Origin: Octopus vulgaris | Taxonomy: Eukaryota | Assembly: GCA_951406725.2 (NCBI GenBank) | Contig: OX597835.1 | Span: forward strand, 6,076,001-6,140,000 | Reading direction: 5' to 3' | DNA: 64,000 bases | Part shown: positions 14,645 to 43,500 of the stretch, in pieces | How the letters are laid out: every line of letters starts with the position of its first letter | Position numbering within the stretch: position 1 is the stretch's first letter | Program-made: the position numbers and the translations under genes | Notes under the pieces: generated by a model | The model's database searches: none | What the model saw: only the letters and a program-made list of their open reading frames with translations | Told to the model about the DNA's origin: nothing

Positions 14645-14679
14645 GTTTCCGACGAAGAGCTCCGCTCGAAACGTTAAAC
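14645..14679 (+). ncRNA. minimal type I hammerhead ribozyme motif (CCGACGA variant) in a probable Penelope-like terminus (about 14575-14772)
   Basis: gttt-CCGACGA-a-gagc(tcc)gctc-GAAA-cg-TT-aaac: stems I and II pair; palindromic ACGT at helix III. Confidence 0.6.
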
Positions 14680-14984
14680 CCTCCTTCTTTCCTGAGCGTC
14701 CAATAATACTATATTTGTTCCACGTCCTCGCGTTGTTGTGTTTTTTTGTGCATTCTTGTTTGGATTAACTTTATATATATATATATATATATATATATAT
14801 ATATATATATATATATATATATATATATATATATATATATATATATTGGAGCACTCCGTCGGTTAGGACACTATAACAAGGCAATATGTGCGACGCTCTA
14901 CCGGTCCTGCCACTTCATGGCTCTCAATAATCGTTTCTAACATCAGTAAAAGGTTTGAAATTATGGGATAGGGTGATATTCGGT

Positions 14985-15145
14985 ACAAACGCCCCCAGTG
15001 AATTACTGGTATTTAAATTATCCATCCCGTATAAATGAAAGGCAAATATTACCGCAGCCAGGTTTGAACTCAAAGCCCAAATAGTTGGCACAAATACAGC
15101 ATAGCATTTTGTTCGACGCTCTCAAATTTTTAATATCCACTGCCT
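14985..15145 (-). mobile_element. old SINE family B copy
   Basis: ccccagtg...ctggta...atgaaaggcaaa...tttgaactca...agcattttg. Confidence 0.6.
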
Positions 15146-15324
15146 GATGGAAGACACAACAAGAATAAGAATGGGAAAACAGCAAACATTGATGTCAAAT
15201 GGTATAATGGATCTGTTTTAAGTTAATGGAAATTGGTATTCTCGTAGAGTTAAATGTCTTGATCAGAGATACCACACTAATACCCATGTCGGGGAATTCT
15301 GATAACCTATTGATTTCTTTAGAC

Positions 15325-15640
15325 ATAGCGTGGGTTAGTGATTAGTGTATACGACTCACGATTCCGAGCGGCATGTTGTGTCCTTGCGCAAGGCACTTTA
15401 CTTCACGTTGCCCCAGCTGGCAAAAATTAGATGTATCTGTATTTCAATGGGCCAACCTAGTCACGTTCTGTGTCATGCTGAATGAATCTCCCTTAACGTT
15501 AAGGGTATGCGTGTCTGTGGAGTGCTCAGCCACTTGTACGTTAATTTCACGAGGAGGCTGTTCAAAGGAACATCTAATCAACGGGACAGCCGTTAATCAG
15601 ATCAACTGGAACATGCATCGTCGTATACGACGGAGTGCCA
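15325..15640 (+). mobile_element. old SINE family D-related copy
   Basis: Shares gtgtctgtggagtgctcagccactt...gttaatttcacgag...gacggagtgcc with the copy at 4151. Confidence 0.75.
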
Positions 15641-40019: not shown

Positions 40020-40236
40020 TAGATAGATAGATAAATAGATAAGTAGGTAGGTAGGTAGGTAGGTAGGTAGGTAGGCAGGTGGGGAGGTAGGTAGGTAGGT
40101 AGGTAGGTAGGTAGGTAGGTAGGTAGGTAGGTAGGTAGGTAGGTAGGTAGGTAGGTAGATAGATAGATAGATAGATAGATAGATAGATAGATAGATAGAT
40201 AGATAGATAGATAGATAGATAGATAGATAGATAGAC
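40020..40236. repeat. (AGGT)n/(AGAT)n microsatellite
   Basis: Read directly. Confidence 0.95.
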
Positions 40237-42894
40237 ATTCCTGATAAACTTTTGTTTATTCTGTTGTTAGCATAGTGTGCTTGTATACCCATGCCCAGGA
40301 ATAGCATAGGCAAATGATACCGATACTAAGAACGGATACTATTATCCCTCAGCCGGTTATTCCAGCCACTGATTCTGCTTACTTTGTTATATATATATAG
40401 GTGCAGGCGTGACTGTGTGGGAAGAAGCTTGCTTCTCCCACTGCGCATGCATGTGTTGTTGTGAGTGTGCGCATGCGTTGTTGTCAGTGTTGTGCGTATC
40501 GCCGAAAGACTTGGCCAAGCTGTGTACAGCTGGTGAAAAAAGAAGCTCAATTGTAAGGTAAGACTTTTGTTTTTTGGGTCCAGTGGGGATTTATTGTTTG
40601 CGGTAATTATTTTTGTACAAATAAGAGGTCCTCACTGGATTCTAAACTCTGGTCTGCCTGCAGTTGTGCAAAAGTGGTTCACGTAAAGTAAACATTTTTT
40701 TCTCACTTAATTGTGAGAATTGTTGCTGGGGGGCGTATCGTGCCTCCTAAAAATTTGTTCACTTTTTGTGAATTTTAAAAATAATTGTGAGAATTGCTGT
40801 TTTGGGGGAGTGTCTTTGCCACCGAATATTGAACGACTTGTATACCAGTTTTTGTGGAAGTTGTGTTCCAGTTGTGGCGTTCTCTCTCCTTCTTGCTCAC
40901 ACATTATCTCTCATATACACGTACATAAATACATATGCGTACAACTTTTTATTGTATGTATGTGTGTGTTTGTGTGCATGTGAGAAAGAGGGTGAGTGAC
41001 TGTATTACTTCATAACATATAGAGAAAAGGATGTCTTTTAATGGGTGACTAATTCGGATGAACATTACTTTCATTATTCACACATCGTCCCTCTCGTAAT
41101 GCAACACTTTGTAATTCTGATTCGAATTGAAAGTGTGAACCTATTTTCACTTTCTAATGAAACCTGGTCGTTGTAGAGTAGTGTCTTTCAAATAGATTTA
41201 GCTGGTTGTTGAGATAACGTAGAAAATATGTAAATGAAAATAAAGTTCGTTTGGTAACCGAAAGATTGCTAAATCTTTTGATACTCTATATGTCAAAATC
41301 GGCATAAAGAACATACGCGCGCACACACACACAGACACACACAGACACACACAGACACACACAGACATACACATACACACAAACTTTCTTTTATATATAT
41401 AGATTTCTTGCGAATAGAGAAAGTGCTGGTTTCTATATATGTATGTTTGATTCTGTGTATGAGTAATCTTTTATGGAACGGTGACGTCAGCAGGGTGTAT
41501 ATACATATATATATATATATATATATATATATATATATATATATATATATATATATATATACATATGTATGTATATGTGTGTATATGTGTATATATGTAT
41601 ATACAGAGAGGGAGAGAGAAAGAGAAAGAACGAGAGGTACACATACAGTAAATATATTTCAAATATTCTTTAAATGCATTCAGTATTTCTAGCGCCATTA
41701 TAATGTATTAATTCTTTACAGTTGTTATGTCATAAGATATTATCATTTCTGTATCATTATTATCGTTATGATTGTCTTTATTGCTTCAGAATTTAAATTA
41801 AGAAAATAGTCGTTTCTCTTTTAAAAATAATAAAATAGGAATGAATCCTTTTAAATAATAATAATAATAATAATAATAATAATAATAATAATAATAATAA
41901 TAATAATAATAATAATAATAATAATAATGATAGTAATAATAATAATAATTGATAATAATAATAATAATCTGTCGAGTATTCGCTCTGCTATTATGACTGC
42001 AGTCAGCGTTTCTTTTTGAAGTATTTTATTTTATTTTATTATATTTATTTTACATTGTTTCGTTTAGCGATAAGAATTACACGGAGAGCGATTATGGAAG
42101 ATCACACGCGACATAATTGATTTTCCAATAACAGCAACTAAATAACTCTACCTAACACGCTCACAGAATGACATTGCAACGCAATAATACAGCATTTGAC
42201 TATTAATAATTTCACATCGGAGGGTGAGGTCGCAATGGACTAGCAGGGGCTGGCGGGCGGGCGGGCAGGCGGGCTAGAGGGCTGGCAGGTTGGAAGGCTG
42301 GCAGGCTGGCGTGCTGGCGTGCTGGCGTGCTGTTGATGCGATTGTGTGGTGAGAGGAGGAATAGCTGTTACGAATTAATACTTCGATAATATTTCTATAT
42401 CCGGCTATACTTTGAAATCTTTTTGTTTTCTTCCGTCATCGGTTTTTATTTGGTGTGTGTGTGTTTGTGTGTGTGTGTGTGTGTGTGTGTGTGTGTGTGT
42501 GTGTGTGTGTGTGTGTGAATGTGTGTGTGTGTGTGGGTTTCCTGGATCATCTCTTGTTTCTTTTTCTGTTTTTCTTCTAGATTATTTTTTTATAATTAAT
42601 TGGAAATTTATTTTTATATTTATTTTTTATGACAATGAAAATGTTTGATACCTTTTCACTACTATACATTCATACACACATACATATATACATACATACA
42701 TTTTTGTGTGTGTATTTGTGTGTATGCATATGTATATATGTGTTTGTATCTGTGTGTGCGTGTATGTATATATATTTTCTGTATGTATATAATAATAACA
42801 ATAATTCTAAGATGGAGTTTATAAATATTTAATACATCACTATACATACATATATATATATATATATATATATATATATATATATATATATATA

Positions 42895-43344
42895 GGCGCG
42901 GGCGTGGCTGTGCGGTAAGAAGCTTGCTTCCCAACCACACGGATCTGAGTTCACTTCCACTGCAGGGCACCTTGCGCAAGTGTTTTCTACTATAGCCTCG
43001 TAGTCGACCAAAGCTTTGTGAGCGGCTTTGATAGGCGGAAACTGAAAGAAACCTGTCGTGTATATATATATATATATATATATATATATATATGTGTGTG
43101 TGTGTGTGTGTGTGTGTATGTGTGCGTGTGTTACTATCTGTGTTTGTCCCTCCACCATCGCTTGACAACCGATCTTGGTGCGTTTACGTCCCCGTAACTT
43201 AACGGTTCGGCAAAAGCGATCGATGGAATAAGTATCAGGCTTACAAAGAATAAGTCCAAGGGTAGATTATTTTTTTAGACTAAAAGGCGGTGCTCCAGCA
43301 TGGTCACAGTCAAAATGACTGAAACAAATAAAAGTGTAAAAGTA
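42895..43344 (+). mobile_element. SINE family A, full length, diverged
   Basis: Head-to-tail match to family A. Confidence 0.85.
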
Positions 43345-43462
43345 TGTATATATATATACCGGAGTAAGCACATAAATGTGATGCAAGGTGGGAAAAAGAG
43401 TACTCAAATACCAGAGGTAGAGTAGTATGCTTTATTTAGAAGCAGCAGAAATAAAACAAAAC

Positions 43463-43500
43463 CTGTTACTCAGAGTTTCACGTTGCCGTTCGTCGGACAG
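43463..43500 (-). ncRNA. compact type I hammerhead ribozyme motif (CCGACGA variant) in a probable Penelope-like terminus (about 43358-43510)
   Basis: Minus strand: ctgt-CCGACGA-acg(gcaa)cgt-GAAA-ctc(t)gag-TA-acag; all three helices pair; GNRA loop on stem II. Confidence 0.72.

Follow-up and report, generated by a model that had tools for sequence, protein, structure and literature searches.

The 64,000-nucleotide (nt) stretch of the Octopus vulgaris genome analyzed here (contig OX597835.1, positions 6,076,001 to 6,140,000; hereafter the window) is part of a 2.8-Gb assembly with 227 contigs and harbors five hammerhead ribozyme folds. Each very probably lies at the 3′ end of a different repeat family, and the five families, designated F1 to F5, are unrelated. 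Two of the families, F1 and F5, are joined elsewhere in the genome to reverse transcriptase (RT) and endonuclease sequence of Penelope-like elements, and two others, F3 and F4, are tandem units without an open reading frame (ORF) that are likely mobilized by such a protein. Copies of the families end at (TA)n tracts, have ragged 5′ ends, and carry inverted arms. The system is the published arrangement of minimal hammerheads in Penelope-like elements and of non-long-terminal-repeat (non-LTR) retrozymes; what is new is its scale in this genome and the presence of a young, retrozyme-like family, F4, with the full set of Penelope insertion marks.

A preliminary description of the window had reported five type I hammerheads with a palindromic helix III, one of them lacking G12, and inspection of the window letters finds all five at the places given. 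The descriptor used for the scan comprises the core C(U/C)GANGA, a helix II of at least 3 bp, GAAA, a short helix III, UH, and helix I. In its strict form it gave three matches in the 64-kb window against none in 40 of 40 local dinucleotide shuffles. Two relaxed forms, allowing either A12 or a 3-bp helix I, gave four matches each against a shuffle mean of 0.05 and a maximum of one, while the reversed sequence gave none; across the entire window the matches are limited to the F1–F5 motifs. The type I core C(U/C)GANGA...GAAA...UH with both helices I and II is complete in four of the five copies, the exception being F3 (A12). All five motifs can form a self-duplex through helix III, in some with G-U pairs or one mismatch. 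The duplex energies range from −1.7 kcal/mol (F1) to −8.8 kcal/mol (F4), and F4 and F5 have dimer helices of 8 bp. The pair 10.1-11.1 is G-C in F1 to F4 and A-U in F5, an extra base after A9 is confined to F1, and stem II is very long (30–69 nt) in three of the five motifs. No Rfam family attained its gathering score in nine motif-holding loci, and there is no hammerhead among the 150 of 594 whole-window matches listed, a list swamped by microsatellites that match microRNA models.

The preliminary description had (TA)n as the target of these families, which agrees with the ends found here. The distance from the predicted cut to a run of (TA)4 or more is 96 nt for F1, 313 for F2, 259 for F3, 195 for F4, and 108 for F5. 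A TA run occurs within 320 nt of 39% of random positions, which gives a probability of about 0.009 for all five together. Four motifs had been described as pointing toward (TA)n and the fifth as running into an (ATATT)n tract; the statement on the fifth is corrected here. F2 copies can be aligned beyond the ATATT tract to about position 17795, where a short TA run follows; the tract is therefore internal to F2, and all five ends lie at (TA)n. ATATT as a second type of target is rejected on the same ground.

F1 (14566–14775, + strand) belongs to a family linked to Penelope-like coding sequence and lies between two (TA)n tracts. Forty scored copies are 92–98% alike, each repeat-family search being scored for its best 40 candidates. 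The minimal type I hammerhead (14645–14679, +) is made up of GUUU/AAAC, CCGACGA, the extra A, GAGC/GCUC, and GAA-ACGU-U, with the palindrome ACGU and a predicted cut after 14675. Some F1 copies are followed by a common 240-nt stretch and then a second F1, with variable junctions. Four of the six long regions fetched around such tandem-type copies (loci L284–L287) begin and end with F1, between which lie, in order, a 5′ region, coding sequence for RT and GIY-YIG, and a long 3′ region. Since F1 stands on both sides of the coding sequence, the window copy is a solo terminal repeat (pseudo-LTR, or pLTR). The F1-flanked ORFs fetched are broken; that of L286 aligns over 709 aa, at 25% identity, with an intact 781-aa RT/GIY-YIG protein described below. 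Translations of L285 and L286 contain the RT, a linker of the CX2-5CxxC class, and a GIY-YIG domain with CCHH, between flanking direct repeats. The Pfam GIY-YIG match of the F1-linked ORF has an E-value of 0.0024 and falls short of the family cut-off. The L286 linker is CX4CxxC, reported as a hallmark of Neptune and Nematis elements (PMC8557442), and F1 is accordingly named a Neptune/Nematis-type Penelope-like terminal repeat on its motifs. A Hydra-type RT that adjoins F1 in L014 was rejected as the parent: of 25 loci in which it recurs, 20 have no F1 and the other five are one duplicated region. In L082, about 300–450 nt upstream of an F4 copy, an F1 copy has its whole hammerhead deleted between short pyrimidine repeats.

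F5 (43354–43643, − strand) is the 3′ end of a putative Hydra-type Penelope-like element and ends at a TA run. Its minimal hammerhead (43463–43500, −) has the parts CUGU/ACAG, CCGACGA, ACG/CGU, and ACUCUGAGU-A, with helix III ACUC-U-GAGU and a predicted cut after 43467. Directly adjoining is a remnant of the C-terminal end of the GIY-YIG endonuclease gene (43636–43745, −), recognized from its translation; it resembles the end of the L116 endonuclease at 88%. The last endonuclease codons are joined to the 3′ end across a deletion of ~1.1 kb at an 8-nt microhomology. Longer copies (L112, L116, L163, and L164) have RT and endonuclease coding sequence upstream of the motif. Hammerhead and (TA)n insertion are both present in the family; the F5-linked ORFs fetched are broken RT/endonuclease fragments. 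In translations of L164, L112, and L116, a CxCX5C linker precedes the C-terminal GIY-YIG domain, and CxxC and CxH stand beside the conserved E and N. The F5 parent thereby matches the Hydra clade, a clade name that, like that of F1, rests on sequence motifs.

The remaining three families have no linked coding sequence. One of them, F2, represents the 3′ terminus of a family that is old, AT-rich, and low in copy number; the (ATATT)n tract lies within its direct arm (17378–17795, +), which stops at the short TA run. Its hammerhead (17395–17471, +) consists of UCC/GGA, CUGAUGA, GAUUC/GAAUC, and ACAAUUGU-A, with a 3-bp helix I, a long stem II, the palindrome ACAAUUGU, and a predicted cut after 17468. 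An inverted 5′ arm (17296–17394, −), 90% alike to the direct arm, contains a decayed sixth hammerhead (17302–17377, −) in which, read by eye, G8 is A and helix III is broken. Inverted arms are frequent among F2 copies, and at least 900 nt of upstream AT-rich sequence are common to the copies. A mir-4782 match at 17344–17428 is the F2 inverted repeat.

F3 (21660–22013, −) is a 5′-truncated copy of an older family, 77–89% alike, whose unit is arranged head-to-tail with a period of ~538 nt and has a longest ATG frame of 43 aa. Its hammerhead (21908–21968, −) is decayed in the window copy and has the parts GAUCACA/UGUGAUU, CUGAUGA, A at position 12, and ACUGGU-U. Of 18 matched copies, 15 keep G12 and 17 have U-A, C-G, or U-G in helix I. 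A second F3 fragment, without hammerhead, lies at 59469–59612 (−).

F4 (32485–32847, −), with TA on both sides, covers 363 nt of a 596-nt head-to-tail unit that is very young and has no ORF. Copies are 99–100% identical on many contigs, and perfect matches to the window piece occur on at least six other contigs. The hammerhead (32677–32776, −) is built of UCUACG/CGUAGA, CUGAAGA, GAAA/UUUC, and ACGUGCGU-C, with a 6-bp helix I, a long stem II, helix III ACGUGCGU, and a predicted cut after 32683. The period is exactly 596 nt in 20 loci, arms reach at most 1,555 nt, an inverted arm is present in many loci, and 5′ ends are spread all round the unit. TA lies directly at 29 of 33 arm ends, a count made by eye in which L101 and L102 may be one duplicated insertion. 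The unit has a GC content of 35% (31% in F3) and a longest ATG frame of 37 aa, and the 3′ half of its young hammerhead has 271 exact copies in the genome; the window copies of both F3 and F4 are sub-monomer pieces.

Two older F4 subfamilies, ~90% alike, have the same build. TA or a similar simple repeat lies no more than 30 nt from 93 of their 98 ends, and 84 of these ends cluster in two zones, around positions 360 and 465 of the unit. The ribozymes of the three subfamilies have different bases at N7 and at U4/C4 and are further set apart by two G-U changes and, in helix I, one two-sided change; the fold is preserved and the invariant core bases are kept. In 20 aligned copies, 98.9% of ribozyme cells are paired in comparison with 17–44% in slid controls, counts that are inflated by the relatedness of the copies. 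An older copy in L352 (148–1829) is followed by a short TA run and then by a 5′-truncated Penelope-type ORF on the same strand, either a nested insertion or a template switch. The F4 head-to-tail joint, F1, and F5 occur in contigs of four of four sequencing runs, which are only guessed to be RNA; the joint is also in the DNA, and its occurrence is no evidence either way. No pile-up of ends at F4, F1, or F5 was found in the run contigs listed, whose depth cannot rank expression, and in two runs F4 is joined to a loose end that has no exact match in the assembly.

The suggestion that several non-autonomous Penelope- or retrozyme-like families are present is thus borne out for the existence of the families, and the term non-autonomous applies only to F3 and F4; F1 and F5 are truncated ends of RT/endonuclease families. 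Linking the flanks to Penelope-like RT/GIY-YIG ORFs, as had been proposed, was achieved for F1 and F5, and no ORF was linked to F2, F3, or F4.

The proposed large genomic load of ribozymes is also upheld. A blind sample of 60 regions of 10 kb at round coordinates (600 kb) contains 19 motifs in 11 of the 60 regions, seven of them in one 359-bp array, whereas six shuffles of the sample gave 0, 1, 0, 0, 0, and 0. Motif frequency is therefore above that of shuffled sequence in both the window and the sample. Extrapolation yields ~61,000 sites (95% range 32,000–104,000) or 89,000 motifs (53,000–138,000). The 35-letter F1 motif has 5,725 exact copies genome-wide (none for its reversed control) and the 35-letter F5 pattern 1,324 (none for the control). 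In 342 fetched loci (1.65 Mb), 200 matches form 21 clusters with differing helices I and II and a palindromic helix III; the cluster filter demanded such a palindrome, and chance may account for a few of the single clusters. At this density 1.4–2.0 motifs are expected per 64 kb, and the probability of four or more is 0.05–0.15; four in the window are therefore unremarkable, and the five motifs do not mark a special locus. The seven-motif array, in L167 (3083–4560 and 7335–7700), has a 359-bp unit of 50% GC, close in size to published animal retrozymes. Its compact hammerhead, with helix III ACCGGU, occurs five times in direct and twice in inverted orientation.

The genome also carries a young Penelope-type element whose 781-aa RT/GIY-YIG ORF is intact at many places, 93–99% alike. 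The hammerhead of its terminal repeat is a U3-A8 core variant, a form known from Schistosoma (PMC4209133). In L161 (930–6175, contig C16), L162, L165, and L166, the ORF is preceded by a separate 359-aa open frame that belongs to no known family.

These observations suggest a common route of insertion. By analogy with a lizard element (PMC11167929), a Penelope-type GIY-YIG endonuclease would nick (TA)n, reverse transcription would start inside the RNA 100–310 nt downstream of the ribozyme, and it would usually stop early, leaving thousands of short ribozyme-bearing stubs. Published work further suggests that the palindromic helix III would allow two motifs of one tandem transcript to form a double hammerhead, which, probably with the help of the element protein, would trim or circularize the element RNA. 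The F3 and F4 units are likely moved by the protein of a Penelope-like element. The single stubs in the window lack a partner and would be largely inert passengers.

Several results weigh against this account. Monomer folding energies do not differ from those of shuffles (z from −1.4 to +0.6), and the inter-copy helix III of an F4 tandem transcript has a predicted occupancy of only ~16%. Covariation within a family amounts to a single two-sided change among related F4 copies. The clustering of F4 3′ ends near 360 and 465 is partly biased by the queries, which themselves stopped close to these positions. Neither the 25 young and 60 older F4 loci nor the 30 F3 loci examined revealed a parent with an ORF, no ORF was tied to F2 in 23 loci and two 9-kb loci, and the ends of F3 and F4 have no sequence likeness to those of the three ORF-bearing families examined, including the 781-aa family. 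Finally, every inserted copy spans the cut site intact; the template was therefore uncut or re-ligated, and DNA cannot tell which.

A possible refinement, which we would hold tentatively, is that F3 and F4 replicate as circular RNAs in the manner of animal non-LTR retrozymes, tandem transcripts being self-cleaved and ligated and the circle copied by a borrowed RT. The exact head-to-tail period, arms of up to about three units, and 5′ ends all round the unit fit a circular template, as do five private variants present in every unit of one F4 insertion, the retention of the F4 ribozyme over three subfamilies ~10% apart, and its 6-bp helix I and 8-bp dimer helix III. Against the circle, 39 other private F4 variants are each confined to one unit, the 3′ ends keep to two zones as internal initiation on linear RNA predicts (PMC11167929), and multimers could equally well come from linear RNA transcribed at a tandem source locus. 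The units also exceed the 170–400-nt circles described in PMC7229834 and are without the canonical loop-loop hammerhead of that report. The fuller proposal for F4 is speculative and would be the less expected outcome: that it is a currently spreading, protein-less circular-RNA retroelement, which cuts and circularizes itself with a Penelope-type dimer hammerhead and depends for insertion on the genome's own intact, young Penelope-like element.

It is rather unlikely that F2, F3, and F4 are simply the ends of autonomous Penelope-like elements, with the copies that carry ORFs lying outside the loci fetched. Such a reading proved true of F1, which at first seemed a fixed 210-nt unit; the shared upstream sequence of F2 resembles a long 3′ untranslated region, and only the best 40 matches per search were scored. 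However, the partial tandems of F1 have variable junctions while F4 and F3 each have one fixed period, and in all of the F4 and F3 loci listed above the unit runs into the next unit or into TA. Pieces of Penelope ORFs lie near 3 of 60 older F4 copies (strong matches) and 2 of 30 F3 copies, about the blind frequency of 6 in 60 ten-kb regions.

The preliminary description had further proposed that the motifs could cut host pre-mRNA, and the idea that single-copy motifs are active in host transcripts and impose a genome-wide regulatory or mutational load is now very improbable. The many copies with an intact core, as the exact F1 motifs attest, and the 8-bp dimer helices of F4 and F5 speak for it. 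Nevertheless, the window copies are single and of different families, monomers lack a stable helix III, the F1 dimer helix is worth only −1.7 kcal/mol, F3 has lost G12, and read-through of F2 would give an RNA in which the motif pairs with the inverted arm. Published tests point the same way: lone minimal hammerheads are reported without cleavage in vitro (PMC4209133), RNA-seq ends were not seen at the cut site of the lizard element, whose cleavage needed protein (PMC11167929), and eight of nine Xenopus retrozyme dimers stayed uncleaved (10.64898/2026.07.22.740005). No host exon was identified in the window, and in 150 of 157 non-repetitive window frames of at least 62 aa no match attained a Pfam cut-off; short exons may escape such a search, and the window is therefore not established as intergenic. 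Chance matches in AT-rich, repeat-laden DNA, suggested by a short core, abundant simple repeats, and the silence of Rfam, are refuted by the shuffle controls in the window and the 600-kb sample and by the fixed position of the motif in element ends and a fold kept across families, leaving a negligible probability.

The explanation by Penelope-like mobilization places the window families among described systems. Minimal type I hammerheads are known from the pLTRs of metazoan Penelope-like elements (Cervera and de la Peña 2014, PMC4209133), and those in the octopus have in common with them the core, a short helix I, the palindromic helix III, and many families per genome, as well as a predominance of solo copies from truncated elements, opposite-strand pairs 100–700 bp apart, and the U3-A8 variant. 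They differ in the very long stems II of three of the five motifs and in an estimated load of 30,000–140,000 compared with the 2,000–9,000 per genome reported there, a comparison across different descriptors. Endonuclease-bearing elements of the Hydra clade and of Neptune/Nematis type (Craig et al. 2021, PMC8557442) share the C-terminal GIY-YIG domain and the CxCX5C (F5) or CX4CxxC (F1) linker, together with the terminal hammerhead, (TA)n targets, partial tandems, and inverted 5′-truncated arms; in contrast to those elements, F1 and F5 have broken ORFs in the loci fetched, and their clades are named from motifs. Poseidon of Anolis carolinensis (Frangieh et al. 2024, PMC11167929) likewise has a terminal-repeat hammerhead, ends at fixed internal sites downstream of it, and AT-rich targets. 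Its ribozyme was tested in vitro, where cleavage needs protein and is dispensable for insertion.

F3 and F4 resemble animal non-LTR retrozymes (Cervera and de la Peña 2020, PMC7229834; Li et al. 2026, 10.64898/2026.07.22.740005) in being ORF-less, low-GC (<50%), head-to-tail units with one type I hammerhead each, found alongside Penelope-like elements. Unlike retrozymes, they carry a Penelope-type minimal palindromic motif with a long stem II in place of the canonical loop 1-loop 2 hammerhead (PMC7229834), show the Penelope insertion marks of inverted arms, TA targets, and two end zones, and form dispersed short multimers seen in DNA. Their units of 538–596 nt are larger than the 170–400 nt of PMC7229834, yet lie inside the 51–972 range of 10.64898/2026.07.22.740005. 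Literature searches returned no paper on hammerheads in cephalopod genomes, although family lists in supplements or Repbase may hold the families or counts; a paper on the repeats of Octopus vulgaris (PMC13282606) uses none of the words ribozyme, hammerhead, or retrozyme in its main text.

The window contains further repeats. A tandem array of 2.2 kb with short AC-rich units (28484–30752) has minus-strand open frames of more than 740 codons and is, as far as seen, a simple-repeat artefact. Weak helix-turn-helix matches below Pfam cut-offs at 53114–53416 and 58587–58967 are probably Tc1/mariner transposase remnants. One repeat of ~200 bp, like a short interspersed element, has at least nine copies, mostly adjoining TA tracts (778–956, 5865–6065, 10144–10327, 25658–25873, 31198–31384, 35415–35617, 37338–37501, 42874–43093, and 46582–46780).

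The system being published, the five motifs will not surprise a specialist. The octopus genome carries tens of thousands of hammerhead motifs in at least about 20 families. The young F4 family and the many intact 781-aa ORFs offer clean material for two questions raised in the published work: what the Penelope hammerhead does, and whether Penelope proteins mobilize retrozymes. If the proposal for F4 is true, F4 and the 781-aa element would be a live, matched pair of parasite and helper, which would show directly how animal retrozymes move and what purpose the Penelope hammerhead serves.

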